Notes under the pieces: generated by a model
Told to the model about the DNA's origin: nothing
Database searches by the model: none
Seen by the model: only the letters and a program-made list of their open reading frames with translations
Program-made: the position numbers and the translations under genes
Shown: positions 7,204-44,468 of the stretch, one piece after another
How positions within the stretch are numbered: the stretch's first letter is position 1
Layout of the letters: every line of letters begins with the position of its first letter
DNA from: Escherichia phage AN_ECEAS
Length of the DNA: 48,081 nucleotides
Sequence record: PP944860.1
Reading direction: 5' to 3' (one strand)

Positions 7204-7222
7204 ATAGCACTTTTTGTTAAAG
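7204..7222 (+). promoter_or_regulatory. dyad-motif promoter element ATAGCACTTTTTGTTAAAG
   Basis: TAGCA-N5-TGTTA; TATAGT 7242-7247; CATCGAAA start region; 27-nt leader to ATG 7281. Confidence 0.6.
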
Positions 7223-13787: not shown

Positions 13788-16700
13788 ATGGCACAAGATA
13801 TTAAGATTTATGGGAGTAAGGGCGGTAGCCAGAAACAGAGACAGCCTGTTGAGCAACCTGACAACCTGGTATCTGTAAACAAGGTTAAAGTACTTTTGGC
13901 GGTAGCGGATGGTGAGGTTGATAGTTCTTTTTCACTTCGTGATTTGTACCTGGCTGATGTTCCCGTTCAGAATGCAGATGGTACTTTAAACTACGAAGGA
14001 GTCACGGCTGAATTTAGGCCGGGAACTCAAGATCAGGATTATATTCCTGGACTTGACGGTGCTAACTCGGAGGTTCAGGTTAGCCGAGAAATCACCAACA
14101 GCACTCCTTACATTATTGCCGTTAACAACAGTCAGCTATCGGCAATTAGGGTTAAGTTGTTTTGGCCAAGACTGATTAGCCAAGAAAGTAATGGCGACCT
14201 TAATGGCACTACGTGCGAGTACGCGATTGACTTATCTGTTGATGGCGCAACTTACACTGAATACACGCGCGGCGTAGCTAATGGCAAGACAACTAGCGGA
14301 TACGACAGAAGTATCAGGGTTAACCTTCCAGCGGAGTTCTCTAGCGCACTGGTAAGGATTCGAAAGATTACGGCAGATTCAGAAAGTTCTACGCTGGTTA
14401 ACGACATGCAAATTACGACCTATCAGGAAGTAATTGATGCTAAATTCCGCTACCCACTTACAGCGCTGGTTTACGTTGAGTTCAGTTCTGACCTCTTCCC
14501 TAACGGAATCCCGACGATTTCAATCAAGAAGAAGTGGAAGTTGATTCGCGTTCCAACTAACTACAACCCAGAGACAAGGACTTACAGCGGAACCTGGAAC
14601 GGCACCTTTAAGATGGCGTATTCCAATAACCCGGCGTGGGTTCTTTACGACTTGGTGACGAATCAGCGTTACGGACTTGACCAGCGAGAGCTTGGCATTA
14701 CTATTGATAAGTGGGGTCTGTATGAGGCGGCGCAATTCTGTGACCAGATGGTTCCAGATGGTAAGGGTGGAGTTGAGCCGCGCTACCTGTGTGATGTTGT
14801 CATTCAGCAGAAAGTTGAAGCATATCAGGTAATCCGTGATATTTGCTCTATCTTCCGTGGGCTGACATTCTATGACGGCGAGCAGATAGGGATTGTTGTC
14901 GATAAGCCGCGTCAACCATCGTACGTATTCACCAATGACAACGTTGTTGATGGATTGTTCAACCGTACATTTGGTAGCGATAAGTCACTTTACACGGTTG
15001 CCAACGTTCAGTTTGATGACGTTGAAAACTCATACCAACAGGATGTTGAGCCAGTATTCGAGTTAGAGGCAACAAGGCGTTTTGGTTACAACCCGGTCGA
15101 CCTTACAGCTATTGGATGTACTCGCAGGAGTGAGGCAAACCGCCGCGGGCGCTGGTTATTAAAGACGAACATTCGCAGCGAGACTATTAGTTTCACTACT
15201 GGTCTGGAAGGTATGATTCCAATGATTGGTGAGGTTATTGCAGTTAATGACCAGGCATGGTCTAGCAACTACACCCTTAACCTTTCTGGTCGTATCGAGT
15301 CAGTAAGTGGGTTGCAAGTTTTTGTGCCATTTAAGATTGATGCTACTGCTGGCGACAGGATTCTAATAAACAAGCCTGATGGAATGCCAGAGTACAGGAC
15401 CATTGCATCTGTATCTGAAGATGGTATGACGCTGCAACTTAATACAGCGTTTAGCTTTACTCCTCAGCCTGACACAGTATTTGCGATTGATAAGGAAAAT
15501 CTTGCTCTTCAGCAATATGTTGTGACCGGGATTCAAAAAGCAGACAGCGATGGAGACGATGCGTTCGGTTACAGCATTACGGCAGTCGAGTACGACCCGA
15601 ATAAATACGACGAAATTGATTACGGCGTAAACATTCAGGATAGGCCATCGTCAATCGTTGAACCTGACACGCTACTTGCCCCAGAAAATGTTCAGGTGAG
15701 CAGCTACAGCAAGGTTGTGCAGGGTTTATCAGTTGAAACAATGGTAATCACCTGGGACAAAGTTCAGTACGCCAAGACTTACACGGTACAGTGGCGTAAG
15801 GAGAACGGAAACTGGATTAACGTACCGCGCACAGCAAACACAGAAGTTGATATTGAAGGTATTTATGCTGGTATTTATCAGGTTCGCGTGAGGGCTGTTT
15901 CTGATACTGAAAACGTATCCGCATGGTCTGACATTGTTTCAGCAAGCCTAACTGGTAAAATTGGAACGCCGTCTGAGCCTACGGTAATCACAGCTTCAGA
16001 TGATGAAATATTCGGCATTAGGGTTAAGTGGGGATTTCCTGAAAACTCAGCCGATACGTCATACACTGAATTGCAGCAAGTAGCCGACAATGGTGATGGT
16101 ACTTACTCACCAGAGAACGCCAGTTTGTTAACGCTAGTTCCTTACCCGGGTTACGAGTATTGGCACACTACATTGCCGGCAGGAAAGGTTATCTGGTACA
16201 GGGCGCGACTGATTGACAAGATTGGTAACGTCTCACCATGGACTGATTTTGTAAGGGGTATGGCAAGCGATGATGTGTCGTCAATCATTGGTGATATTAA
16301 GGTTGATATAGAAAACTCAGATGGGTTCAAGTATCTCCAACAGAATGCCATTGAGTCAAACGGAGCTATTCAGGCGCAAGCGGAATCAATAATTGAGAAC
16401 GCCCTGGCTAATGATGGTGACGTGCGTAGAATGACGAAGGAAAACGGCAAGAGGAAGGCCGAATTTGTTCAGGCTGTGAATCTTATCGCCGATGAAGAAA
16501 GGGCTCGCGTAGAGGCTCTGACGCAGCTTAAAGCGCAGATTGATGATGAGATTGTGGCTTCGTTGACAAGGATTGATACGGCGCTAGCGGAAGAAACGCA
16601 AGCAAGGACCACTGCGGACACTGCTTTATCTGCAAGGCTCGGTGAGAATGAAGCTGCTTTAAATGAGAAGCTGGATACTTACGTTACAGCTGATTCAATT

Positions 16701-17181: not shown

Positions 17182-17205
17182 GGCCCCTTTCGGGGCCTTT
17201 TCTTT
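17182..17205. terminator. terminator between convergent J-like gene and minus-strand gene
   Basis: GGCCCC-TTTC-GGGGCC stem-loop plus T-run. Confidence 0.7.
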
Positions 17206-18167
17206 TAGTAGAAGTTTGGTATGAATGGTAGAGCCATTGATATGTTTGTGTCGAATGGGAATTGGGCTCCCGTCTGCGTTGAGTAGTTCCCTATCACAGT
17301 GCCTGGAACTGCCCTTACGGCACCACCAGACATGCATATTCCCTTGTACCTTAAGTTGTTATACCCTCCAGTAACTCTTGTTGTAGCGCCGCACCTGAGC
17401 AGTGGGAAGAACCCTCCATTTATTGACTGGAAACCGTTAGTCATTTGTATAAAGCCACCAAGCACAAACGGTCGCCTAACGCTGGAAAAGACAATCTGTC
17501 CAGAACTATTAGACATTGTGAGTCCTGGGCCAGCTACTGGAGGGTCATTCCTGAATATCACTAACTGTACGTAAGTACTTGCTGCAACGTCATCTATGCC
17601 GCTGTAGTTTATGTTGCGGCACCAAATTGTATTACCGTCGCTCTCCAGAGAAACGTTTGGGTTATCCCATTTACCAAATGGAATCCCACTGACTGGTAGT
17701 GAGGCGGCGCCGTTAACCTGTATTCCACCAACCCATGCCGCAGACATTAACCGCGAATTGCTTGAAATTGCCAAAAAGTCAGTTGAGTTCTCAACCAGTA
17801 TTCCTGGGCTTGATGAAGACGAGGCTGGGAGTATTTCAAAGCAATTTCCAGCAAAGTCAATTATACGACCTCTTGCGCCATTGAAGTCACTAAGCGTTAT
17901 CCTGCCAGTTCCGTCATTTACCTTCTGGAACCCGTTCATATAATAAACTTCAGGTACAACATCATAAGCGTCAACGTGCACAGCCTTTGTTGGAAGGCAG
18001 AATGCTGTTGATCCTGGGGACATGGTTAAACCAAAATCCCATGATGATGCTGGCGTCGAAAGTCCATTGGTATTTATTGAGCCAGTCACAGCGGGCGCTC
18101 TTAATCCTGCCGTTATTTCCATAGGTGGCCTTCCGTCGTTGAGGTCTATCAATATACCCTGTGGCAT
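17205..18167 (-). CDS. hypothetical protein co-transcribed with lipoprotein (possible tail fibre/receptor-binding accessory)
   Basis: ATG 18167 with RBS AAGGAG; start overlaps lipoprotein stop (TAATG). Confidence 0.4.
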   Translation of the reverse strand: MPQGILIDLNDGRPPMEITAGLRAPAVTGSINTNGLSTPASSWDFGLTMSPGSTAFCLPTKAVHVDAYDVVPEVYYMNGFQKVNDGTGRITLSDFNGARGRIIDFAGNCFEILPASSSSSPGILVENSTDFLAISSNSRLMSAAWVGGIQVNGAASLPVSGIPFGKWDNPNVSLESDGNTIWCRNINYSGIDDVAASTYVQLVIFRNDPPVAGPGLTMSNSSGQIVFSSVRRPFVLGGFIQMTNGFQSINGGFFPLLRCGATTRVTGGYNNLRYKGICMSGGAVRAVPGTVIGNYSTQTGAQFPFDTNISMALPFIPNFY

Positions 18168-18412
18168 TATTTCCACTCCTTAGACCCGTGATCTGCAACT
18201 GAACCGCCATAACCTCCACCAGCCTTGCTCTCAATACCAGCGTAGCGCACATCAACTTCACCAGCCGGTACAATCACGCCACCTTTCCATTTAGCCACGC
18301 ATACACCGTTTGCTTTCGTTGCACACCATCCGTCAGGACGCGGAGCAGAAGAGCAACCCACCATTATGATTGCTGCTGCTGCGATGATTGAAAGTTTGAT
18401 TAAGTTAGTCAT
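18167..18412 (-). CDS. small lipoprotein (Cor-like superinfection-exclusion candidate)
   Basis: N-terminus [20 protein letters not shown] with lipobox-like MVGC; RBS AAGGAA; own dyad-motif promoter. Confidence 0.6.
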
Positions 18413-18473
18413 TTTCGTATTCCTTGTGAGGTTCGTTTCGATGGAGTAATCATACATCATCTATAATCTTTGT

Positions 18474-18492
18474 CTTTAGCAATTCGTGCTAT
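18474..18492 (-). promoter_or_regulatory. dyad-motif promoter element (minus strand)
   Basis: Reverse complement of ATAGCACGAATTGCTAAAG; TATGAT and CATCGAAAC follow on minus strand before lipoprotein gene. Confidence 0.6.
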
Positions 18493-18544: not shown

Positions 18545-18860
18545 ATCGTATACACCTATTTACGCCTCGATACGCCATAGTTACATTAAAATATCTATAT
18601 ATATCAACCCTTTACTCTTATTATTATTATTATATATATTACTGTGTATATCATGTAACTACTATTCTGTAGTGTTCCGGTTATAATTTTTATATCATGT
18701 GATTTTATACAGTATTGCGAGGCACCCATACCTATGCACCATCCGCCAAGATCGGTATACACGATATACGCACCATTTACATTGAGCTATAGCTGGGCTC
18801 AGGCAGTGAAAAACGTAACCAATAGAAATGTCTACACGTAGTTACGGATTTATACGCGTA
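18545..18860. repeat. control region A: AT-rich (ATT)n block, 10-bp palindrome AGCTATAGCT, conserved CGTAACCAAT and ACGCGTATA boxes; paralogous to region B
   Basis: Blocks 18591-18650 and 18781-18860 align by eye with 38701-38760 and 38891-38970. Confidence 0.7.
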
Positions 18861-19155: not shown

Positions 19156-20127
19156 ATGACATTCAAAGTTTATTTAAATAACGAACTTAGCAACGAAGCC
19201 TATCACGAAGAGCAGGACCACATCTCTGGCTCTTCACTGGCTGAGATTCTTGCTACCTCACCAGCTAAATGGAAGTTTAAGCAGCGCAATAACTCTAGCG
19301 CAGCACTTAAGTTTGGCACACTAAGTCACTGCATGATGCTAGAGCGCGAGGTGTTTGACTCAACATACATGCGAGCTACTGACTTTGACGAAGTGGAAGG
19401 ATTGATTACTAGCCAAACGGCTTTATCCGCAGCGCTTAAAAAAGTTGGAGTTTCAGGCACGTCAGGGAAGGGTTATAACGAGCTTGTAGAGATGATGTAT
19501 AAGTGTGGTGAGGATTGGCCTGTTAAATGGTTAATTGAGCAGCAGGAGAGCGCTCATGCGCTAATTAGTGGCAAAGAGCTAGTTGCTGCGAAAGATTACG
19601 ATAAAGTAATTCAAATGCGAGAGGTTCTAACTAATATTCCGGCATATGATTCGGTAATTAATTCACCATCAGCGCAGAAAGAACTATCAATATTTGGTGA
19701 GATTCTCGGTTGTGGTGTTAAGGTTCGTCTTGACCATGTGGATGTTGTTGATGGTATTGTCTACATTACTGACTATAAAACTACGTCAGACGCAAGCCCG
19801 AGGGGGTTTGGGAAGTCAGCTTATGACCATGGATACCTGTGCAAGATGGCACTTCAGCGAGATCTGTTTGTGAAAGCCTTTAATGAGAAACGTAAGGTTG
19901 TAGTTCGCCTTCTGGCGCAGGAGAAAACAGAGCCTTACTTACCAATGAGCTACACTCTTACGGATGAACAGCTTAGAATTGGACGTTTACAATATTGTGA
20001 GGCACTGTCAATTTACAAGAATTGCAAGGAAACAAACATGTGGCCCGGATACTCAAACGGAGCAACGGAACAGGAGTTAATGATACCTGAATGGGTAATT
20101 AACAGTTATAAGGATATTATAAAGTGA
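19156..20127 (+). CDS. putative PD-(D/E)XK-family exonuclease (recombination partner of ERF)
   Basis: Motif ITDYKT consistent with D-x-K nuclease core; position upstream of ERF/SSB. Confidence 0.45.
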   Translation: MTFKVYLNNELSNEAYHEEQDHISGSSLAEILATSPAKWKFKQRNNSSAALKFGTLSHCMMLEREVFDSTYMRATDFDEVEGLITSQTALSAALKKVGVSGTSGKGYNELVEMMYKCGEDWPVKWLIEQQESAHALISGKELVAAKDYDKVIQMREVLTNIPAYDSVINSPSAQKELSIFGEILGCGVKVRLDHVDVVDGIVYITDYKTTSDASPRGFGKSAYDHGYLCKMALQRDLFVKAFNEKRKVVVRLLAQEKTEPYLPMSYTLTDEQLRIGRLQYCEALSIYKNCKETNMWPGYSNGATEQELMIPEWVINSYKDIIK

Positions 20128-20678: not shown

Positions 20679-21329
20679 ATGAAAACTTCAGAACAAAACA
20701 AGCAGGTATTGAAAGCGTTATTTGAGGCTAAATCAAAGTTTGCAAAGGCTGAAAAGTCAAAGCAGAACTCGCACCTCAAGAACAAGTACGCGACCCTTGA
20801 AGACGTTTTGGCGGCTGTAGAGCCAGGACTCGCAGATAGCGGCCTTGTCATGTTTCAAGGCATGATTGATGATGAAGCCACAACTAGAATTAAGGTTGAA
20901 ACAACTGTCTATCATGCAGAATCTGGAGAGTGGGTCAGCTTCCTGACAATCGTCCCAATCAGCAAGCAAGATGCTCAAGGTTATGGGTCATCACTTACAT
21001 ACGCTCGCCGTTACGCAATCACAGCGGCGTTAGGTTTAAGCCAGGCAGATGATGATGGTCAGTTAGCAGTTAAAGGCATCAACTCATTTAAGAAAGATTT
21101 AGCTAAGTGCAACACTCTTGATGACCTGCGAGATGTATACAAAGAAGCTAAGCAGTCTCTTGATTCAGCTGGTTGGCTGGTGATTGAACCTCACATTATT
21201 GAGCGTAAGGCAGAGATTCAGGCTAATGCAACTAACGGCTTCAATCCTGCAAAACCTAAACAGGTTGCACAAAAGTCTGTTCAAGAAGAAAAAGTTGAAG
21301 TACAATCTCAAGAAATCGACACATTCTAA
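20679..21329 (+). CDS. ERF-family single-strand annealing protein
   Basis: Motif GSSLTYARRYAITAALGL typical of ERF; adjacent to SSB. Confidence 0.7.
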   Translation: MKTSEQNKQVLKALFEAKSKFAKAEKSKQNSHLKNKYATLEDVLAAVEPGLADSGLVMFQGMIDDEATTRIKVETTVYHAESGEWVSFLTIVPISKQDAQGYGSSLTYARRYAITAALGLSQADDDGQLAVKGINSFKKDLAKCNTLDDLRDVYKEAKQSLDSAGWLVIEPHIIERKAEIQANATNGFNPAKPKQVAQKSVQEEKVEVQSQEIDTF

Positions 21330-21369: not shown

Positions 21370-21807
21370 ATGAGTCATGTAATTACTGGTGTTATCCGTC
21401 GCGCTCCGTTCACCAAAGAAGGTCAGAATGCTAACGGAACCTGGAAAATGTATGCAGTTGATTTAAGCGAGCGCTACAAGGACAAGGATGGTCAGGTACA
21501 TTACAGTAACTATCGAGCTGTCTTCTTCGCAAAAGAATCAATGCTTGCATGGTACGATGAGGCTTTTCAGGAAGGAAAAATTGTTAGCGTAAGCTGCGAA
21601 ACTCTTGCTGTAGATGTTCGTGATAAAGATGGTAAGACGTATGTAACCATTAACATGAACAACCCGCGACTTGAGTTTAGTCAGCGCGGTGATGGTATTC
21701 AGCAACAACAGCGCCAGCAGCCACAGCAGCAACAAAGCCAACAACCACAGCAGAACCATCAGCAACCTAAGCAGCAGCAGAACTTCGACGATGACATCCC
21801 ATTCTGA
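21370..21807 (+). CDS. ssb: single-stranded DNA-binding protein
   Basis: 145 aa, Gln/Pro-rich linker and acidic C-terminal tail ...DDDIPF. Confidence 0.8.
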   Translation: MSHVITGVIRRAPFTKEGQNANGTWKMYAVDLSERYKDKDGQVHYSNYRAVFFAKESMLAWYDEAFQEGKIVSVSCETLAVDVRDKDGKTYVTINMNNPRLEFSQRGDGIQQQQRQQPQQQQSQQPQQNHQQPKQQQNFDDDIPF

Positions 21808-21817
21808 TAAAAGATAA

Positions 21818-21839
21818 AGCCCCTTTCGGGGCTTTTTTT
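21818..21839. terminator. bidirectional terminator between SSB and tailspike genes
   Basis: AGCCCC-TTTC-GGGGCT stem-loop flanked by A-run and T7. Confidence 0.7.
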
Positions 21840-24372
21840 ATGCGAGAGAAACTCTTGAATTTGCAAATATCATGGCATCCCTTTGGTTATCAAACTGCAC
21901 AACAAAGTAATCAGCAAGACTTAACACCATACCAGTTAGTCCATCAAGGTTGATATGCAGGTTTGCAGTGCCAGATACTGAAGCCTGAGCAACTCCAAAT
22001 GTATGAACCCACTTACCGCCCTCAGTGAACACTTTCCCTAAAGATGCAGTACCAAAAATACTGATAGCACCATCTGCACCACCTTGAATCCTGTTTGCAG
22101 AGATACCCCAAACGTACCATTTGCCGGAAGTTATATTAAAGCCACCATTTATCAATTCGTACTGAGCCGCACCAGCCAATTCGTAGTATCCAGATGATTG
22201 CGAGTGTATACCCCTTGTATCAGAACCTTCACTTGCCGACCCTGTTCCACCAAAGTTGTTCCCACCAGTACCAAAAGGCCTCCTGACTAAAACAGTTCCG
22301 GAATCGGGATTAAAAACTCGACCCTTAGTAACATATCCTCTAACAGATAAGTCAGATGTACCCGTTATCTTGGCTGTCTGTGATACCAGTGACTCAACTA
22401 TAACGTTTGATGTTGAAGAGCCATTCAGGTATGCATCCTTAGCAAAAATAATACTGTTCGAATCAAGAGAGAAACTTTGATGCCCATCAGCGTTATCAAA
22501 CCTGCAACCGTAAGTAACAAGGTTTGAGTTAGACAACTCAATGTTATTAATGTAGGAGTGCTCAGCAAAGAAAACAGACGTATCAATAAGCTTCAAAACC
22601 CTTGGTAGCTCAGCACCCTCACCTACGTTAATTGCCCCACCAGTCGCTATTGCTTCAAACCATACATTTGACAAACCACAAGGCGAGGTCGGGCAATCTC
22701 CAGGTTTATTCTTTAACCTTATACCACCTCCAGCAGAGGCCTCCATTATTGAATCCCTAATCCACCATCCACCAATCCCTCCAGCACCAGGGTTAGTTGC
22801 ACTACTTGTGCTTGTCGCATCTAGCATTACTGAATATTGAGAGATTGTATCTGAGTGGTACCCGTATAAAGTGTCCGCTCCTATATGCATTTCGTCATGA
22901 GCTTTGGCTCGATACCCGTAATTCGCATTTCTAATACTTACGTTTCTGTAGGTATTTCCAATGTTGCCAGCATTTTTCCTTATACCAACATCCAGGTCAT
23001 TGAAGTAAAGCCTATCCAATACAACCCTTCCAGCATAAGGGTCATCCGGGAATTGAAAGCCGTTATTACCTTGTATTGCAGTACCTGTAAACTGCAAATC
23101 CGATAAATGCTTTTGCCTCCAGTGCGGAACCGATAGCGTTGAGGTGAGTCCGGTTTCAAAAGGTTTAACACTTATTACGGTATTATATCCAGAGCCTGAT
23201 ATGTTCCTGCCAGCAAAGGAGTAGTTATTACTCTCATAAGTTCCCGGGCTTATAACTACCGACCCGCCATCGCCAGCGGCTTCTATTGCTGAAGATATTG
23301 AGCCGCTATAGCTTGATGTGCTTTTTGAATCTGTATTTAAAATTGATGACACCTCACCCTTTGAGTAAACATCAAGGTTGGTTCTTGCCACGGACTTATC
23401 TGCAATGTCTGAAAGATTCAATGATTTTTGAAACGTCTCGGATTTTGAGTAAACATCAAGCAACCCCCTAACCCTTGACGCGCTTGATCCACCAGTTGCA
23501 GCATCACCGCCAGGCAAGCTTAGTACTTCCCTTACATAAAAAACCCTAGATCCAGTCGCACCAGAAATTGTGACATCTGCAATCCTAAAATTTGAGTTTG
23601 ACCCAGTAGACGGAGATAACCTTAATACATTAGCCGAATTAACACCCCTAGTTGCAATAACATCAATACAAATAGGAGTTGTTGAAACCGGAAACATTGA
23701 ACTAATTTCTTTTGGGGTGTTTAACATATTCCCAGGTGTGCACTGATAACGACCTCCGGAATAAAATTGCATTGTTTGCCAATCTAAAGAGGTAAGTAAT
23801 GGCGTTGTCGTGCTACCTATTCCGTGATTAGCAAAGTAAGCAACAGCCGCTGTATTTCCAGCCGCATTTATTGCTTCAACCGTCCTGTTATATGAATTTT
23901 GTGCGTTAGTGCTTGCACCAACTGCGGTCGCTGCACTTTCAGCAGCAGCAATCTGACTAGCTAACGCCTCCGCAGCTCCGGTAGTTGACTGAGTTGCCAG
24001 TTGTTCAAAACGAGGCCAATCAAAAGTATCTTGACCAATAAATTGCAGTAGACTTTCAATAGAAGTCTCTTTTGACTGGTAGTAACGCAATGTTTCCGCA
24101 ACATCCTGTGCCAACCCCTGAACAGTAATTCCATCATGAGCAAGAATTGCGTAACCAGTACCAGCGGGAACAGTTTCAGAACTTGGATTATAAACATTAA
24201 CCTGAGTATCGCTGATGATTTCAGAGATGGTGTAAATTTTCAGAGGGCTGGTTTTGAAAATGATAGTAGCACCTACACGAATCAGCGTAAGCGGCGCTTT
24301 CCATGTTGTACCGACACCAGTTACCTCTCCATTCGCGGCCAGTGACGCTGTTCCTAAGTCATAAATTGCCAT
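21838..24372 (-). CDS. tailspike/tail fibre protein with beta-helix (pectate-lyase-like) domain
   Basis: ~845 aa, Gly/Ser/Asn-rich repetitive beta-strand pattern; ATG 24372 with RBS GGAG. Confidence 0.5.
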   Translation of the reverse strand: MAIYDLGTASLAANGEVTGVGTTWKAPLTLIRVGATIIFKTSPLKIYTISEIISDTQVNVYNPSSETVPAGTGYAILAHDGITVQGLAQDVAETLRYYQSKETSIESLLQFIGQDTFDWPRFEQLATQSTTGAAEALASQIAAAESAATAVGASTNAQNSYNRTVEAINAAGNTAAVAYFANHGIGSTTTPLLTSLDWQTMQFYSGGRYQCTPGNMLNTPKEISSMFPVSTTPICIDVIATRGVNSANVLRLSPSTGSNSNFRIADVTISGATGSRVFYVREVLSLPGGDAATGGSSASRVRGLLDVYSKSETFQKSLNLSDIADKSVARTNLDVYSKGEVSSILNTDSKSTSSYSGSISSAIEAAGDGGSVVISPGTYESNNYSFAGRNISGSGYNTVISVKPFETGLTSTLSVPHWRQKHLSDLQFTGTAIQGNNGFQFPDDPYAGRVVLDRLYFNDLDVGIRKNAGNIGNTYRNVSIRNANYGYRAKAHDEMHIGADTLYGYHSDTISQYSVMLDATSTSSATNPGAGGIGGWWIRDSIMEASAGGGIRLKNKPGDCPTSPCGLSNVWFEAIATGGAINVGEGAELPRVLKLIDTSVFFAEHSYINNIELSNSNLVTYGCRFDNADGHQSFSLDSNSIIFAKDAYLNGSSTSNVIVESLVSQTAKITGTSDLSVRGYVTKGRVFNPDSGTVLVRRPFGTGGNNFGGTGSASEGSDTRGIHSQSSGYYELAGAAQYELINGGFNITSGKWYVWGISANRIQGGADGAISIFGTASLGKVFTEGGKWVHTFGVAQASVSGTANLHINLDGLTGMVLSLADYFVVQFDNQRDAMIFANSRVSLA

Positions 24373-24395
24373 TGTGTAAAGTCTCCATTTGTAAA

Positions 24396-24414
24396 ATAGC
24401 ACGAATTGCTAAAG
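24396..24414 (+). promoter_or_regulatory. dyad-motif element with no + strand gene downstream (lies in leader of the minus-strand tailspike gene)
   Basis: Perfect ATAGCACGAATTGCTAAAG; a degenerate reverse copy at about 24462-24480. Confidence 0.35.
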
Positions 24415-24438
24415 TTGATTGTAGCATCTTTGAGTCAT

Positions 24439-24459
24439 AAAAAAACCTCCCTTAGGAGG
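24439..24459 (-). terminator. rho-independent terminator (minus strand) after primase gene
   Basis: CCTCC-CTTA-GGAGG stem-loop with T7 on minus strand. Confidence 0.6.
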
Positions 24460-25383
24460 TTAGTCTAGCAATTCGCTTGCCTTGTATATTCGCTTTCTTA
24501 TGCCTGACTTGAAAAAATTATCATCATTTGGCATTACCACATCAAGATCGCGATCGTCAGCAACGGCGAGTAAATCAAAAGCGTGGCGAGTGCAAGCGAT
24601 GCGTAACTTGTATTTTCTAAGCGCGTAAGCAACCATTTCCATGTTGTAGCTGGAGTAGCAAACAATCACGCAGCGGTTGCCAGTAGCAAGATGAACGCGA
24701 ATACCATCAATCCAATTATCGACAAGATAAGCGTACTCATCATCTTTAAGGGAGCCAATAACAGACACTGACTGTCGAGTATAATCTTTTGCAGCATAGC
24801 TAACATCTCCTTCCTCATTGATAAACATTACATTGCACATTTCTTCTGATATGCCGTCACTATAAGCCATAAAGCACGGGACAGCATGGATTAATTCACC
24901 TGATTTTGTTCTACCAACATCAAATCCAAACTCGCTATAAATACCCTCGTATGTACTGAGTGGAGTTGATTCTACTCTTTCCGTCCTTTCCATTATCTCC
25001 AGGCATCTTTCGTGGTCAATCTGTGCTCCCATTTTGTAGAGCTGGGCTCTTGATGCTTGCTTGTTTGCCTTGTTAACAACTTCAACCGGGATGAGGTTCA
25101 GCCACTCACCTAGAGTGTCAATACATTCACTGAATGACTCACCCCGCATCTTCATGACCCAAATAATCCCATCACCTGACCCGCACTGGTTGCAGATAAT
25201 CCCACCGTCACCATCCTCACTAACCTTGTTTGTCCAGCGAGCGCGGTCAACTCCTCCACAATAAATACATGGCTTATGCTTTTTTGTCTGGAAGAATTTT
25301 GGGTCTGCGCCGCAAATGTTTATAAGCGCCTTATCCCACAGTCCGCGCATTCTTGGTAAAACTTCTTTCTTGTCGTAGTGCAT
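24460..25383 (-). CDS. putative DNA primase (zinc-ribbon plus TOPRIM-like region)
   Basis: CIYCGG...CNQCG zinc motif; acidic DxD cluster; divergent from helicase gene. Confidence 0.45.
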   Translation of the reverse strand: MHYDKKEVLPRMRGLWDKALINICGADPKFFQTKKHKPCIYCGGVDRARWTNKVSEDGDGGIICNQCGSGDGIIWVMKMRGESFSECIDTLGEWLNLIPVEVVNKANKQASRAQLYKMGAQIDHERCLEIMERTERVESTPLSTYEGIYSEFGFDVGRTKSGELIHAVPCFMAYSDGISEEMCNVMFINEEGDVSYAAKDYTRQSVSVIGSLKDDEYAYLVDNWIDGIRVHLATGNRCVIVCYSSYNMEMVAYALRKYKLRIACTRHAFDLLAVADDRDLDVVMPNDDNFFKSGIRKRIYKASELLD

Positions 25384-25441: not shown

Positions 25442-25915
25442 TTACTCTTTAGCTTTTCGTGCTGCTTCGTTAGCGGCCTTAATCTTGCGCCATGATCGAC
25501 ACTCTGGCTTGGTGGCTAGCTCTGCTTCAGTAACTACGCGAAGCATATGACGCTTCTTACATCGAAGTGTTAGCGGCTTACCGTTTCCGTCGAATTGCAG
25601 GTCTGGTCGGCAGAACGTAGCTCGAAATCCTTCCTTATTTCTCTTATACGCATTGTGAGCTTTCTGCGCTCCTCGAGCCGAAATCATCCCGCGATCAAAC
25701 CATTGCTCTACAGTCTGGTGAGATACGTTTAACTGCTTTGCGATGTTCGCCTTTGTTCCATAGAAATCAAGAACCATCTCCAGGCGAGCACGTAGCCCAG
25801 CCTTTACCTCATCTTTCAATACGTAGTAGCCTGACGGTCGTTTGCGTTGCTTCTTGTCTTGTGTGCGTACCGTTCCGTTATTGCCGTTAATAGTTCGTTT
25901 GTCAATTTCACACAT
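25442..25915 (-). CDS. HTH DNA-binding protein (candidate transcription regulator)
   Basis: Basic protein with HTH-like segment IAKQLNVSHQTVEQWF; its RBS region abuts dyad motif 25928-25946. Confidence 0.4.
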   Translation of the reverse strand: MCEIDKRTINGNNGTVRTQDKKQRKRPSGYYVLKDEVKAGLRARLEMVLDFYGTKANIAKQLNVSHQTVEQWFDRGMISARGAQKAHNAYKRNKEGFRATFCRPDLQFDGNGKPLTLRCKKRHMLRVVTEAELATKPECRSWRKIKAANEAARKAKE

Positions 25916-25927
25916 CTCATTACCTCA

Positions 25928-25946
25928 ATAGCACTTTTTGTTAAAC
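25928..25946 (+). promoter_or_regulatory. dyad-motif promoter element ATAGCACTTTTTGTTAAAC
   Basis: Upstream of helicase gene; TATTAT-like hexamer ~20 bp downstream; 12 bp from start of divergent HTH gene. Confidence 0.55.
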
Positions 25947-26011
25947 AATAGGTTCGATAATTGATATTATACAGCAATGCAACGAACTAACAAACTGTCA
26001 GGATACTTAAA

Positions 26012-29000
26012 ATGCTTCCAGTAGAGCGCTTAGTGGCAAACTTTGATCAAGAGAAAATCAAACAGATTCAGAAAGATTACCAGTTTGGAGACATAACTCC
26101 TTACGAATTCCAGTGTGTAACATTTGACGCAATTGGTAAGGCTATTGGTAAGTACGAGGCTCCATTCATCGCAGACCTGTCTGTATCTGCTGGTAAAACA
26201 ATAATTCTTGCCATGATTGGGAAAAGAATGGAGCAACTTGGACTTCCTTATATGGTACTGTCTCGCCAGTCAGAGATTATCAGCCAGAACGCAGAGGAAC
26301 TCCGTAACTTCGGTATCCGTAATAGCGTCTATTGCGCTGGACTTAACGTTAAATCAGTTTACTACCCAACCATAGTGGCTAGTGAGGGTACAGCTGCCAA
26401 TGGCCTGTTTAAGGGGCTTGGTGACTATGTTCCTGCTGTTATCGCGATAGATGAGTGCTTAACTGGAGACACGATGATAACCACCGATTCAGGGATGATG
26501 AGGATTGATAGCGAAGACCTTATCAATCATAAAATAAAATGCATAAACGAAAGCACTGGTGATTACTTCTATCATAAGCCAAAAAGAGTTTTTACTAATG
26601 GTGTAAGACATGTATCATCAATTAAATTAGAAAGCGGAGAGGAAATAAAATGCACGAGTACACACAAACTTTATTCGAACGGCTGCTGGGTAGGAGCGGG
26701 AAAACTTCGTATTGGGATGAATCTGTCGCTAGACGGCTCGCAGGACAAATTTACGAAAAAGCTCCTGCGTGCAAGTGTGGCTGTGGTGAAAAAGTTATGC
26801 CGCATTCAAGCAAGGGGTTAGGCGTACTTCTTAAGAACCCTTTCGATTTCTATTTGGATTACAGAACGGGGCATCATAATTCAACCGTCAACCCATCAAT
26901 GGAGGTTGATGACTTTTTACATCAAAACATTCTTGCGGCAATGGCTGGTGATGGTTGCTTGATTAAAAATACAGAAAAAGGAACGCATAGGCTATCTTGG
27001 AATATGGGAAATAAGGAGCACGCACTAAGCAAGGTTGAAAGGTTTGCAAAACTAAACCCTAGATACAGGGAGAAGAAAAACCCTGGATTTGGCGACAACT
27101 GGTTTTGCGTATCAACATCATGTACGAAAGTTCTGGATTCATATGCTGATAAGTACGGAAATTCTAAGGATGGTTACGATATTGGAAAGATATGCAGAGA
27201 GCTTGATCCAGTTGGTTGGGCTGCTTACTTTGGTGATGATGGTCATTGCACTGTAAGCTCAGGGAAGAGGGTTGTAGAAATCCACACCGAATCATTTAGC
27301 AGGCGTGAAGTTCAATCAGTAGTTGATGCGCTAATAGCATTTATTGCTAATGACGGAGTTAATGTTAGAAGCTATATTGGCGGCAAGAAAAAGAGAGAGC
27401 TTTACTCAGTATCAATAACAACGAGGTCGGCACAAGATGAGTTTTTTAAGAGAATTAGTAAGCACATGGAAAATGGCGTGGAATACAAAATCAAGCAAAA
27501 TTAAAGACATCTCACCCATTGGCAAGGAACTTGTTTGGGATATAGAGATGCCTGAGCACCATAATTTCATTGCTGACGGGGTCGTGGCACATAATTGCCA
27601 CATGGTGGACCATATGGATATCGTAGAAGCTGAAGAGAATGAGGAAACATTCGAGCAGATGAGCACGAAGAAGGGTGAGATGGTCTTTAAGGATGGTGTG
27701 AATACCGGGCTTCTTGGCACTGGTCGCGCGCAATACACGTTAATCATTACCGAAATGAAGCGTCGATGCAAGGAGAAGTACGGTCGCGAACTTCGTATCT
27801 TTGGGTTAACTGGTAGCCCGTACCGTAACAACGACCACATTGTAGTTAGTAACCCAAATGTCCGTGGATTCTGGCGCAAAACTGTAATGCAAGTGCCAAC
27901 CAGCTACCTTGTTGACTTGGGGTTCGTTGTTCCTACTGTCTACGGTGAAGTTGGTGATTTGGGCTACGACCTTAGTGAGTTCACTCCTGATGGAAGTGAT
28001 GGGGTTAAGGACTTCAGCAAGAAAGAAATGGATGCGATGGCTGCAAAGATTCACGAAAACCAAACGATGACACAAAAGATAATGGGATTTGCTGCTAGGT
28101 TTATGGAAACAAGGAATGCTGCATTGGTAACTTGCGCTGGCAAACAGCATTGCGAGGAGGCGGCAGCCGCACTTCCAGAAGGTGTTACTTGGGCGATAGT
28201 TACCAACTCCACTGGTGATAAGAAGCGTAGAGAGATACTTGAGAAGGCAGCCAGCGGAGAATATAAGTTCATATTTCAGATTGGTTGCCTCACAACTGGC
28301 GTAAACTGCCCCCCGTGGGATACAAGCATTATCCTGAGGAAGGTTGGTAGCATTACTCTACTCATTCAGTTGCTTGGTCGTGGTATGCGTATCCTTAAGA
28401 AGAAGCACAAAGAAGCTGGAATGGTAAAAGATGACCATGTTGTTCTTGATTTTGCCGGGACGCTTGACGATATGGCAGAACTCTACTTCGACCCAATTAT
28501 AGAAGAGGTTCAGGACCAGAAGTTTAAGTCATCCAGGAAAGGGGGTGATGAACCAAGAATTTGCCCAGCATGTTCTTATGAGAATTCTCCTTTCGCACGG
28601 CGCTGTAATAATGTGATTGACGGTAAACGATGCGAGCATTTTTTTCAGTTCCGTCTTTGCGAAGATATTGAGGACCCGCAGACGAAAGTTATCGTTAAGA
28701 AAGGTTGCGGAGAGAAAAATGACGTTGCAGCAAAGAACTGCCGCTGCTGCGGAGAGATGCTGATAGACCCAAATGCAAAGCTATCTGGAAAAATGTATCG
28801 GAAAGGGGACTGGTTGAGAGTTTATGACTTCAAGATTGGGTTGACAAAAAACCAGTCAGGGATCGTTGCTTCATATGAGGTAATGGCTCATAGTGGAGAT
28901 AAGTTCCGAGCTTATGAAACATTCTTCCCGGAGTCAGACCATCGTGTTTGTTCTGTCAAATGGAAGGCGTTTTGCTCAACTCACATCGAGAACAGGACTG

Positions 29001-29146
29001 AGGCTTTTAGGATTGGCAGATTGCGTAATGCTAAAATGATTATGACAAATGCACATCTTTTCCGTGCGCCGCTAAGGATTACGCACCGCAAGAATCAGAA
29101 GTCGCAAGATATTATCGCCAACAAATCATTTACGATGGAGGATTGA
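26012..29146 (+). CDS. SF2 DNA helicase interrupted by an intein in motif II (exteins 26012-26455 and 27596-29146)
   Basis: Walker A SVSAGKT; DE|CH box restored on splicing; motif VI QLLGRGMR; C-terminal zinc ribbons; reading frame is not continuous through the intein. Confidence 0.7.
26456..27595 (+). mobile_element. intein with LAGLIDADG homing-endonuclease domain (endonuclease domain in a different frame)
   Basis: N-terminal CLTGDT and block B TSTH; C-terminal ...HNFIADGVVAHN followed by Cys; two LAGLIDADG-like motifs ILAAMAGDGCL and WAAYFGDDGHC in ORF 26650..27504. Confidence 0.75.
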
Positions 29147-32299: not shown

Positions 32300-32317
32300 T
32301 AGCACTTTTTGTTAATA
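32299..32317 (+). promoter_or_regulatory. dyad-motif promoter element ATAGCACTTTTTGTTAATA
   Basis: Between metallophosphoesterase and HAD phosphatase genes. Confidence 0.5.
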
Positions 32318-32372
32318 AAGCCTCAAAGGATTGAGGCAAAATGAATAAACGATAACGATATGAGGAGTTGTA

Positions 32373-34462: not shown

Positions 34463-34845
34463 AGGCTGCGTTAATTGCTGCGGTAATTATACTTTCTGGT
34501 TGCTCGGCAACATCTGCGCTGACCGGGTTGATTGGTAGTAAGCCAGAGATTAGCGCTCAAGCAGGTGCGGAGAATAACAAGGTTGGAGTAGGGCTAACTA
34601 ATAAGGTTGATTCAAGTTCCAGCGCAAAGGCTGAAGTGAAGAACTCTAAGGTTGACACTCTTGATAGTTCAAGCGGTAAAAAGACTTCTGATAACTCAAT
34701 CAAGGCATCAACAATCACGGCTGAGAAGATTGAAATCACCAACAATGACTCGTCTGCAATCCCGTGGATTGGGAGTGGAATCATGTTTTGCGTCATCATC
34801 ATTCTGCTCTTAATGATATTCAGGAAAAACAAAAAAGCCCCGTAA
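34459..34845 (+). CDS. unimolecular spanin (lipoprotein signal plus C-terminal TM segment)
   Basis: N-terminal lipobox LSGC and C-terminal TM FCVIIILLLMIF in one polypeptide; last gene of lysis cassette. Confidence 0.6.
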   Translation: MKAALIAAVIILSGCSATSALTGLIGSKPEISAQAGAENNKVGVGLTNKVDSSSSAKAEVKNSKVDTLDSSSGKKTSDNSIKASTITAEKIEITNNDSSAIPWIGSGIMFCVIIILLLMIFRKNKKAP

Positions 34846-34859
34846 TGGGGCTATTTTTA
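34836..34859. terminator. bidirectional terminator between spanin gene and convergent minus-strand operon
   Basis: AGCCCC-GTAAT-GGGGCT stem-loop with A-run upstream and T-run downstream; includes spanin stop codon. Confidence 0.7.
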
Positions 34860-35192
34860 TGCAAACAATTCGTCATCACTCATGTTGGCTATGTTCATCA
34901 TCTCACTGACGTAATCACTGGACCTACCTTCAAGGCTCATGAATTCAAACTGAAATGGTCGCTTAATTGAACCCTTACACCAGTACACTCCATTAACTCC
35001 ATCAAGATAACCAGCCGTAAGCATTCTCGCCATAAACTCCTTCGAGCAACTTGAGGCAAAATACCTTTCATCAACCCCGGCAGCCTTGGCCATCCTTGCG
35101 CAATCCTTGTGCTTATAGATGAATCTTGCCAGGTGCTGGCGGTTGAAGTTCTTGTATCCTTCGCAGAAATTATACAGGTCGAGCAGGTACAT
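34857..35192 (-). CDS. hypothetical protein
   Basis: Last gene of leftward operon; convergent terminator shared with spanin. Confidence 0.45.
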   Translation of the reverse strand: MYLLDLYNFCEGYKNFNRQHLARFIYKHKDCARMAKAAGVDERYFASSCSKEFMARMLTAGYLDGVNGVYWCKGSIKRPFQFEFMSLEGRSSDYVSEMMNIANMSDDELFA

Positions 35193-37794: not shown

Positions 37795-37811
37795 TTAGCA
37801 ATTCGTGCTAT
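37793..37811 (-). promoter_or_regulatory. dyad-motif promoter element (minus strand) with terminator hairpin in its spacer
   Basis: Minus strand reads motif, GC hairpin plus T-run, TATAGT, CATCGAAATG, RBS, ATG 37730. Confidence 0.6.
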
Positions 37812-37956
37812 TTCGTGCCTTCTCAATCGCCTTCAGCATAATCTCGTGAGACTCAAGCAAGTCCTCGTTGAACCAGTCTCCGCAAGGCCACCCCTTCCCA
37901 CTGTAAGCGGCAACAACGCTCAAGTCGTAATAGTTAATGTCAGATGGTAGAAGCAT
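37795..37956 (-). CDS. hypothetical small protein (53 aa)
   Basis: Below track cutoff; RBS AAGGTGA; ends ...NSTNC* inside the downstream promoter motif. Confidence 0.3.
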   Translation of the reverse strand: MLLPSDINYYDLSVVAAYSGKGWPCGDWFNEDLLESHEIMLKAIEKARNSTNC

Positions 37957-39976: not shown

Positions 39977-40162
39977 ATGAAAACTAAAATGGTACATAAG
40001 AGCGAAGTTAAGATTGGCGATACTGTTATCCATCGTGGCTATCTTAGAACTGTAAATGCCAACACTTTTAGTAAGGATGAGTTTATGGGACTACTTCTTT
40101 GGGGCGACTCCTACCGGCTTGGGCAGGAGATGGTTGAAGTTATAATTGATGTTAAGTTTTGA
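39977..40162 (+). CDS. hypothetical protein
   Basis: RBS CTGGAGAAA. Confidence 0.45.
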   Translation: MKTKMVHKSEVKIGDTVIHRGYLRTVNANTFSKDEFMGLLLWGDSYRLGQEMVEVIIDVKF

Positions 40163-40181
40163 ATAGCACAAATTGTTAAAC
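40163..40181 (+). promoter_or_regulatory. dyad-motif promoter element ATAGCACAAATTGTTAAAC
   Basis: TATAGT ~20 bp downstream; upstream of 40239. Confidence 0.55.
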
Positions 40182-40238
40182 CTTCCGCAAGGCCATTTGA
40201 TATAGTGGCCTTATTAAAGCAAAGCAAGAGAGGGTGGG

Positions 40239-43928: not shown

Positions 43929-44453
43929 ATGAAAGACGAAAACTTCACCAGTCAGGCGCAGGAAAAGGTCAGCTCTGGCAACTTTAAAGCCATGTACAAT
44001 AAAAAGTACTCAGACATTACAACGCTAGCCAAAAACCGAAGCATGACACCCGAACAGCTATTTGAATTCGCCGTGAAATACTTCTCATGGGCTGAGGACC
44101 AGGCAATCAAGGCAATCGAGACAGCCAGCTTCCAGGGTGTGGTAAAAGAGAGCCTGGTGCACAAACCACGAGTCTTCACGCTAACCGGATTCTGCCTTTA
44201 CTGCGGCGTCACCCATAGCGCCATCGAGAAATGGAGGAAGTCGGCTGGTTACGATGAGGTGATGGCATTCATTGATTCCGTGATTCGCGAGCAAAAGTAC
44301 CAGTTAGCAGCGTCCGGCATCATTAACCCTGGCATGATTTCTAAAGAGCTCGGTATCGACAAGCCGCAGGAGATTAACATCACCAGCACATCTTCAGCCA
44401 ACGACGTCGATACGATGAAAGAGGCGCTCGAATCGGTTATTAGCAAGTTGTAG
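43929..44453 (+). CDS. putative terminase small subunit
   Basis: 174 aa, RBS AAGGAGG, immediately upstream of HNH and TerL. Confidence 0.5.
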   Translation: MKDENFTSQAQEKVSSGNFKAMYNKKYSDITTLAKNRSMTPEQLFEFAVKYFSWAEDQAIKAIETASFQGVVKESLVHKPRVFTLTGFCLYCGVTHSAIEKWRKSAGYDEVMAFIDSVIREQKYQLAASGIINPGMISKELGIDKPQEINITSTSSANDVDTMKEALESVISKL

Positions 44454-44468
44454 CACTTTTTGTTAAAA
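44450..44468 (+). promoter_or_regulatory. dyad-motif promoter element GTAGCACTTTTTGTTAAAA
   Basis: GATAAT hexamer downstream; upstream of HNH gene 44521. Confidence 0.5.

Follow-up and report, generated by a model that had tools for sequence, protein, structure and literature searches.

A Drexlerviridae lateral tail fibre gene of Escherichia phage AN_ECEAS, with a predicted promoter of its own and a conserved dyad in its leader

Between the genes for a single-stranded DNA-binding protein (SSB) and a DNA primase, Escherichia phage AN_ECEAS (PP944860.1) carries a gene for a large tailspike-like protein, and the position of such a gene in a replication module raises the questions of whether it arrived there recently and from which promoter it is expressed. 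A first-pass annotation of the 48,081 nt stretch analysed here (the window) had proposed a recently acquired host-range cassette, driven by a degenerate promoter and carrying a perfect dyad motif in its leader. The region matches, at 100% identity, that of Escherichia phage ES, a member of the Braunvirinae (Drexlerviridae) with a record of 48,315 bp (OR466728.1); the name ES is used below, and because the public ES annotation is unreliable, gene functions were re-derived from Pfam and PHROG profiles. The best explanation that we can offer, to which we assign a probability of about 0.5, is that this lateral tail fibre gene possesses its own predicted promoter and a putative dyad operator, with the Cro-like regulator encoded upstream as the most likely binding factor; the assignment of the promoter, of the factor that binds and of the direction of control is inferred, while the identity of the gene, its predicted fold, the synteny and the geometry and conservation of the motif are shown. 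The coordinates of all features are collected in Table 1.

The fibre gene, its modules and its position

Calling and translation of open reading frames gave a minus-strand frame at 21838-24402, with 844 amino acids (aa) from the ATG at 24372, so that the tailspike-like gene of ~845 aa described earlier between SSB and primase was recovered with both of its neighbours. A Pfam search of the protein gave no match, and PHROG profiles split it between two tail-fibre families, phrog_24092 (aa 1-373, E 4e-130) and phrog_27367 (aa 344-844). When PDB sequences were searched with phmmer, aa 1-174 aligned with residues 1-171 of the depolymerase chains 7lzj, 7vyv and 7vz3 (E ~1e-32); as this search gave matches at the N-terminus only, the beta-helix suggested for the remainder was checked through structure prediction. 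The C-terminal 500 aa have 203 relatives among 1.8 billion representative proteins, 65 of which formed the alignment for an AlphaFold2 model of the monomeric segment aa 345-844. The model is all-beta (predicted local distance difference test, pLDDT, 93.9; predicted template modelling score, pTM, 0.92) and predicts with high confidence a right-handed parallel beta-helix, whose best structural matches are phage tailspikes and depolymerases, so the fold proposed in the first-pass annotation is borne out. Four residues, E573, H496, R449 and N470 (full-length numbering), are invariant or near-invariant among the relatives and are, on this conservation, candidates for catalysis. The C-terminal module most likely binds and cleaves a surface polysaccharide, with O-antigen as the probable substrate. 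By homology to DpK2, a Drexlerviridae depolymerase that immunogold labelling placed on the tail appendages of phage RAD2 (PMC8552709), the protein would be a part of the virion tail. The gene is a Drexlerviridae lateral tail fibre gene of the tailspike form, made up of an attachment domain, a shaft with at least two alleles, and an exchangeable beta-helix module.

Comparison with relatives located the boundaries of these parts. Over residues 1-100, identity is 90-99% in all but one of the 14 relatives compared, the exception being P0103 at 75%, and the shaft, residues 101-340, exists in no fewer than two allelic forms. Over residues 341-844, six relatives reach 96-100% identity whatever the shaft allele, also where the shaft is only 41-68% identical, and most others are unrelated; the breakpoints between modules lie inside the gene, at ~aa 100 and ~aa 340. 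A wider search found 750 homologues sharing the N-terminus, with varied C-terminal Pfam domains: full-length coverage was present in 7 of the 120 listed, and the C-termini of other listed homologues matched PF12708, PF13229, PF13884 or PF27114. The term host-range cassette is thus apt below the level of the gene, where only the C-terminal module is swapped.

The order SSB, fibre, primase, regulator and helicase is identical in T1, JeanPiccard and BEK6, and primase and regulator stand upstream of the fibre gene in 38 of 46 IMG/VR loci fetched with the N-terminal domain. Maffei et al. reported that the flanks are fully syntenic in the family, with the fibre gene conserved at its 5' end only (PMC8594841, S1C Fig), and that the family varies chiefly at this locus (PMC8594841). 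At 0.432, the GC content of the module matches that of the whole genome (0.441), without a compositional signature of recent transfer. Judged by the comparison of gene orders, the position between SSB and primase is the ancestral arrangement of the family and not a recent insertion; the shared order, the published synteny and the genome-like GC content speak against a recent acquisition of the locus. The earlier description of the gene as lying on the opposite strand holds with respect to SSB, to which it is convergent, but not to the primase and the regulator upstream, with which it is co-directional, and the wording "far from the tail cluster" is inaccurate, the gpJ gene ending ~4.7 kb away from it. 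Gene, location and modularity are already known for Drexlerviridae, and the gene itself is ordinary and expected.

The fibre leader and the promoter cassette

The primase terminator hairpin noted in the first-pass annotation is present at 24461-24439 on the minus strand, and most related loci have a hairpin and a T-run in this position, with different stem sequences. In phage SU57, whose promoters are BPROM predictions (PMC7718038), a terminator upstream of the tail spike gene left the authors unsure whether the gene is transcribed (PMC7718038). In ES, the terminator is followed by an extended -10, TGcTACAAT (24426-24418), and 6 nt past it begins the dyad TAGCACGAATTGCTA, which runs in the opposite orientation to the fibre gene and lacks a -10 of its own; a start ~7 nt past TGcTACAAT would coincide with the first base of the dyad. 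The 19-mer at 24396-24414 (plus strand) fits the extended consensus of the motif.

This arrangement recurs in all 21 distinct dyad-bearing leaders, including that of T1 (dyad at 34903-34917), as TGnTAnAAT, 6-7 nt, the dyad with 0-2 mismatches, 21-25 nt and the ATG. The extended -10 takes the form TGnTACAAT or TGaTAAAAT, the leaders belong to two subfamilies, and the other intergenic sequence diverges; upstream of the ATG, the related leaders have an SD-like (Shine-Dalgarno-like) purine run, spaced much as in ES. The perfect plus-strand motif singled out by the first-pass annotation is a real site, conserved across two subfamilies. In the clades that lack the dyad, mostly an extended -10 or a -35/-10 pair still follows the primase terminator. 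Since the extended -10 is conserved past the terminator, the fibre gene very probably has its own promoter, and this conserved predicted promoter directly after the primase terminator answers the doubt raised for SU57. In T1 (locus L004), an annotated orf25 (34791-34934) overlaps the fibre leader, the dyad and the extended -10; it is probably not a real gene, and the T1 fibre most likely starts as orf26, at the ATG at 34881.

The dyad is not confined to the fibre leader. The window contains 7 perfect copies of the 15-mer and 23 with up to three mismatches, against 1.4 expected, and in ES, T1 and JeanPiccard most transcription units are preceded by a cassette composed of TAGCAC-N4-TTGYTA followed by AA, a 22-nt spacer, a TATAGT-like -10 and "CATCGAAAC" at the expected start. 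There is no -35, the -10 is often TG-extended, and the start is followed by a short leader with an SD sequence. Among 120 distinct 17-mer instances from IMG/VR contigs, a -10 hexamer was found at an offset of 21-23 in 107 in the forward direction and in 8 in the reverse, and the offset was exactly 22 in 82 of the 88 strong cases (-10 matching at 5 or 6 of 6 positions). With the arms TAGCA and TGCTA, this geometry places the centre of the dyad near -42. Cassettes lie in the window at 7205, 18477, 20606, 25929, 29565, 29819, 32300, 33387, 36838, 37796, 38413, 40164, 40840, 42186, 44451 and 46536.

Several further observations concern these cassettes. At 37796-37850 (minus), 40164-40215 and 32300-32345, the GC-rich terminator hairpin of the preceding gene lies inside the 22-nt spacer, so that terminator and promoter overlap, and the T1 cassettes at 39977 and 41957 likewise carry the upstream terminator hairpin between dyad and -10. 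A second core variant, TAGCACTTTTTGTTA, is exactly repeated at 7205-7219, 25929-25943, 32300-32314 and 44451-44465, where it follows the major tail gene, the 31166-32299 gene and the 43929-44453 gene and stands upstream of the helicase gene, and may represent a promoter class separate from the CGAAT-core copies that precede small early-type genes. The perfect cassette promoter at 18477-18491 overlaps the annotated start of the lipoprotein frame, so that this start is probably wrong. T1 (L004) has inverted variant dyads within its structural module, at 15071-15085, just before the major capsid gene, and at 18835-18849, 22 nt before the ATG of the tape-measure chaperone; for the latter, the antisense strand carries an in-register, TG-extended -10.

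A sigma-54 promoter (TGGCAC-N5-TTGCW) was rejected as the identity of the motif: TAGCACGAATTGCTA has AG in place of GG, its elements are 2 bp too close, and the -10 at 22 nt is of the sigma-70 type. A literature search for the motif sequence returned no phage paper, within open-access text and with the original T1 and Rtp genome papers outside its scope, and both the cassette and the putative orphan operator appear to be undescribed.

Candidate binding factors and competing readings of the dyad

In the circuit that we propose, the fibre gene would be a transcription unit of its own, in which the primase terminator would halt most upstream transcription, the extended -10 would restart it near 24411, and the terminator at 21816-21835 would end the transcript. 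A dyad-binding factor would activate the cassette promoters from -42 and would repress or limit the fibre promoter, where the dyad would cover +1 to +15. The same factor would likewise limit the promoter of the regulator gene, with the variant dyad at ~+17 to +31, and the most likely candidate for it would be the Cro-like regulator itself (25442-25915), two genes upstream of the fibre gene.

The control region between the divergent regulator and helicase genes provides the second case on which this proposal draws. The -10 of the helicase, TATTAT (25965-25970, plus), overlaps by 5 bp the -10 of the regulator, TATAAT (25971-25966, minus), which belongs to a canonical sigma-70 promoter, TTGTTA (25993-25988)-16-TATAAT, at 25993-25966 on the minus strand. 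The dyad at 25929-25943 lies between the shared -10 region and the regulator ATG, so that it stands both ~17 to 31 nt into the predicted regulator transcript and at -42 of the rightward helicase promoter. The layout is found also in T1-like and Braunvirinae-like loci, and looks like an autoregulatory switch. Dimers of Cro-type proteins recognise dyads of 14-18 bp, the site from which lambda cI activates PRM has its centre at -42, and the structural model of the regulator has a Cro-like fold. An Lrp-like phage regulator was also considered and rejected, as the model shows a Cro-like helical domain and not a helix-turn-helix with a RAM fold.

From the position of the dyad over +1 to +15, which is the classic place for an operator, together with the second case at the regulator promoter, we infer that the regulator binds the dyad. 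That the fibre-leader dyad serves as an operator for some factor we hold at somewhat less than even odds; that this factor is the Cro-like regulator is more doubtful.

Several points weigh against this interpretation. The regulator occurs in all clades, including those without the fibre-leader dyad, so that their co-occurrence gives no support. Conservation extends over the whole 15-mer with its asymmetric centre CGAAT, and the orientation of the 15-mer to the -10 does not vary, which fits a directional recognition element at least as well as a symmetric site for a dimer. If a phage regulator activated nearly all promoters, early transcription would require its prior synthesis, and early or repressed expression is unusual for a structural protein. 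Mapped Drexlerviridae promoters, and data on transcript starts, binding or expression for them, were not found in the open-access literature; PMC13250531 deals with T5-like phages, not Drexlerviridae.

A wider claim can be put forward only tentatively, namely that one 15-bp element runs nearly all T1-like transcription, with ~17 promoters turned on from -42 and two promoters independent of the element, those of the regulator and the fibre, held down by a copy over the transcript start. If so, the fibre, which is the host-range determinant, would differ from all other virion proteins in the timing or the level of its expression, and the pattern would point to an undescribed regulatory grammar in the family of T1, a classic phage on whose transcription control little work exists. 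No description of such a single-element circuit was found in the open-access literature.

Among the competing readings, the one that survives best holds that a host protein, Lrp or another dimeric regulator of E. coli, binds the dyad, which would tie fibre expression to host physiology. The arms TAGCA...TGCTA, likewise spaced by 5 bp, agree with the consensus for E. coli Lrp, yAGhAwATTwTdCTr (PMC5554404), at 10 of 10 arm positions and 11 of 15 overall, in a comparison made by eye with the consensus alone. This match makes a host factor a live, if unlikely, alternative to the regulator. A host factor would also explain how the very first promoters fire, and nothing in the model of the Cro-like regulator links that protein specifically to the dyad sequence. 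On the other hand, the centre CGAAT mismatches 4 of the 5 central Lrp positions, including the strongly conserved A7, T8 and T9, and the likeness is one judged by eye, not scored against real Lrp sites. Moreover, Lrp usually activates from several upstream sites rather than from a single site at -42.

It is improbable that the dyad, together with the conserved 5' end of the gene, serves mainly as homology arms for the exchange of fibre modules, with little regulatory role, a reading modelled on the mobile promoter/stem-loop cassettes of T4-type phages. Phages with unrelated downstream sequences do have near-identical leaders, and share 90-99% identity over the first 100 codons, at the locus where the family chiefly varies (PMC8594841). 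In divergent comparisons (L012, L014 and the T1-like phages), however, only the extended -10 and the dyad are kept, which argues for site-specific selection and not for a homology tract, and the module breakpoints are those given above, inside the gene and not at the dyad.

There is a slim chance that the dyad functions at the RNA level, whether by forming a 5'-terminal hairpin (UAGCA-AUUCG-UGCUA) and so stabilising the fibre mRNA, or by serving as the site of an RNA-binding protein. Stem-loops at the 5' terminus protect E. coli mRNAs, a start at ~24411 would make the dyad the first 15 nt of the fibre mRNA, and the T1 dyad 22 nt before the tape-measure chaperone ATG is likewise inverted. The 58-nt leader nevertheless folds no better than shuffled sequence (z 0.30), and the 5-bp hairpin lies outside the minimum-energy structure. 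In addition, the identity of the dyad, loop included, with promoter dyads that are not transcribed points to recognition at the level of DNA.

Slimmer still is the chance that the plus-strand dyad is a normal cassette promoter firing rightwards, with antisense RNA across the primase terminator and 3' end as its product. The plus orientation and the context of the 19-mer (A...AAG) agree with the full cassette consensus, and Braunvirinae relatives have a TATAAA or CATAAA hexamer 24 nt past the dyad. This hexamer, however, is 2 nt out of the register of exactly 22 kept by 82 of 88 strong cassettes and lacks the invariant final T, the T1-like leaders have no -10-like hexamer in the rightward position past the dyad, and the conserved "CATCGAAAC" start is absent.

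The degenerate promoter proposed in the first-pass annotation fared worst. It would consist of a half dyad, GCAAGCGAATTGCTA at 24466-24480, a spacer holding the terminator and a weak -10, with the perfect dyad as a modulator. True cassettes with an upstream terminator between dyad and -10 do exist (window 37796 and 40164; T1 39977 and 41957), and the contiguous 10-mer CGAATTGCTA at 24466-24475 speaks for it. Only the right 10 of the 15 bases match, and the segment encodes the C-terminus of the primase, K-A-S-E-L-L-D-stop. In relatives it drifts at synonymous sites (TTG to TTA, AGC to AGT; TTGCTA to TTACTA), and on account of this drift the match was judged incidental. The reading can be dismissed as very improbable, given that the 10-mer is primase coding sequence that changes synonymously in close relatives and differs in T1-like phages, that no -10-like hexamer stands in register 22 nt downstream (positions 23-28 fall in the T-run, and TATGAC, the closest candidate, misses the register by 4 nt and has no final T), and that a conserved and much better extended -10 lies 13 nt farther downstream. 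As a separate observation, a 10-bp inverted repeat (CGAATTGCTA / TAGCAATTCG, at 24402-24411 and 24466-24475) brackets the primase terminator and might form a stem in read-through RNA, but synonymous changes disrupt it in close relatives.

Neighbouring genes and comparison with known systems

Table 1. Features of the fibre locus and its surroundings, in coordinates of the window.
Feature	Position	Strand	Basis or remark
PDDEXK exonuclease gene	19156-20127		profile
Erf recombinase gene	20679-21329		profile
SSB gene	21370-21807	+	phrog_44
Bidirectional terminator hairpin AAAGCCCCTTTCGGGGCTTT	21816-21835		T-runs on both strands; common to the convergent SSB and fibre genes
Lateral tail fibre/tailspike gene, 844 aa	21838-24372	-	stop 21840-21838; phrog_24092, phrog_27367; syntenic annotated gene in JeanPiccard
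Exchangeable C-terminal module, aa 345-844	21841-23340	-	right-handed parallel beta-helix and C-terminal beta domain (predicted)
N-terminal attachment domain and start of helical bundle, aa 1-174	23851-24372	-	phmmer; common to Drexlerviridae
Shine-Dalgarno GGAG	24383-24386	-	10 nt before the fibre ATG; read off the sequence
Perfect dyad TAGCACGAATTGCTA	24397-24411	+	orphan, opposite in orientation to the fibre gene; over ~+1 to +15 of the transcript as predicted
Predicted extended -10 of the fibre gene, TGcTACAAT	24418-24426	-	sequence and conservation; predicted start near 24411
Primase intrinsic terminator, AACCTCC TAAG GGAGGTT	24439-24461	-	7-bp stem, 4-nt loop, T-run
DNA primase gene	24460-25383	-	Zn_Ribbon_Prim (PF08273), phrog_510; upstream of the fibre gene, same strand
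Degenerate dyad GCAAGCGAATTGCTA	24466-24480	-	last primase codons; judged incidental
Cro-like helix-turn-helix regulator gene, 157 aa	25442-25915	-	profile and model
Divergent regulator/helicase control region	25929-25993		variant dyad TAGCACTTTTTGTTA at 25929-25943
Helicase gene	26012-29146	+	profile

Three observations concern the surrounding genes and their annotation. In OR466728.1, the product names are displaced: SSB appears as "terminase small subunit", Erf as "head morphogenesis protein", the fibre as "hypothetical protein", and the N-terminal and C-terminal pieces of the helicase as "minor tail protein" and "putative single-stranded DNA binding protein", respectively. The helicase gene (26012-29146) is ~1.1 kb longer than in JeanPiccard, with matches to intein splicing domains in the helicase frame and a LAGLIDADG endonuclease domain at 26650-27504 in another frame; the reading frames imply two frameshifts, through sequencing error or decay, and among 50,697 phage records the insertion occurs in ES only. 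Directly after the gpJ gene and on the opposite strand, 17205-18460 (minus) encodes a protein of 323 aa with DUF6453 together with a lipoprotein of phage type (PF24052), presumably the pair of terminal receptor-binding protein and superinfection-exclusion protein described for small siphoviruses.

The fibre gene has close counterparts in the family. JeanPiccard bas02_0034 ("lateral tail fiber protein"), the "tail fibers protein" gene of BEK6 and T1 orf26 occupy the same position between SSB and primase and lie on the same strand as the ES fibre gene. Compared with ES, the lateral fibre genes of Braunvirinae keep the 5' end (80-90% identity over about the first 340 aa) and vary in the 3' part, and the C-termini of the JeanPiccard and BEK6 fibres share less than 20% identity with the ES module. 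Among proteins of solved structure, DpK2 (from the Klebsiella siphovirus RAD2; PDB 7lzj) and Depo32 (7vz3) have an N-terminal attachment region homologous to that of the ES fibre, and share with it the plan of N-domain and helical bundle, beta-helix and C-terminal domain. Their beta-helix modules, in contrast, align with that of ES at the level of the fold only (~11% identity), and both are capsule depolymerases of Drexlerviridae infecting capsulated Klebsiella, whereas the host of ES is E. coli.

The nearest annotated relatives of the module itself, at 46-49% identity over 94-95% of the 500 aa, are found in LM33_P1 (Kayfunavirus), ES17, myPSH1131, Golestan and fFiEco03. The ES type of module spans podoviruses and siphoviruses, including coliphages that target ST131, with N-terminal adaptors unrelated to that of ES. 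It constitutes a new allele related to the fibres of anti-ST131 E. coli phages and may serve host-range engineering, but as its identity to the modules of the ST131 phages is below 50%, its specificity need not match theirs.

At the level of regulation, the predicted system resembles two classic ones. Like lambda cI at OR2/PRM and the operators of Cro-type proteins, the 15-bp dyad of the T1 family is centred near -42 of most promoters, with repression expected where it overlaps a promoter, and, as with Cro-type operators, the ES dyad is found past the predicted start at two promoters in the operon for a Cro-fold protein. Unlike lambda cI and Cro, it would serve no lysogeny switch; there are ~17 sites across the ES genome instead of one tripartite operator, binding is predicted only, the orientation of the dyad is fixed, and its centre is asymmetric yet conserved. 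The cassette also recalls the middle promoters of T4, in which a phage-specific upstream box, the MotA box, stands in for the -35 and is combined with a good, often TG-extended -10; the ES box spans -49 to -35, whereas the MotA box lies around -30. The mobile promoter/stem-loop cassettes of T4-type phages are, like the ES cassette, compact and repeated, and often have a preceding terminator hairpin.

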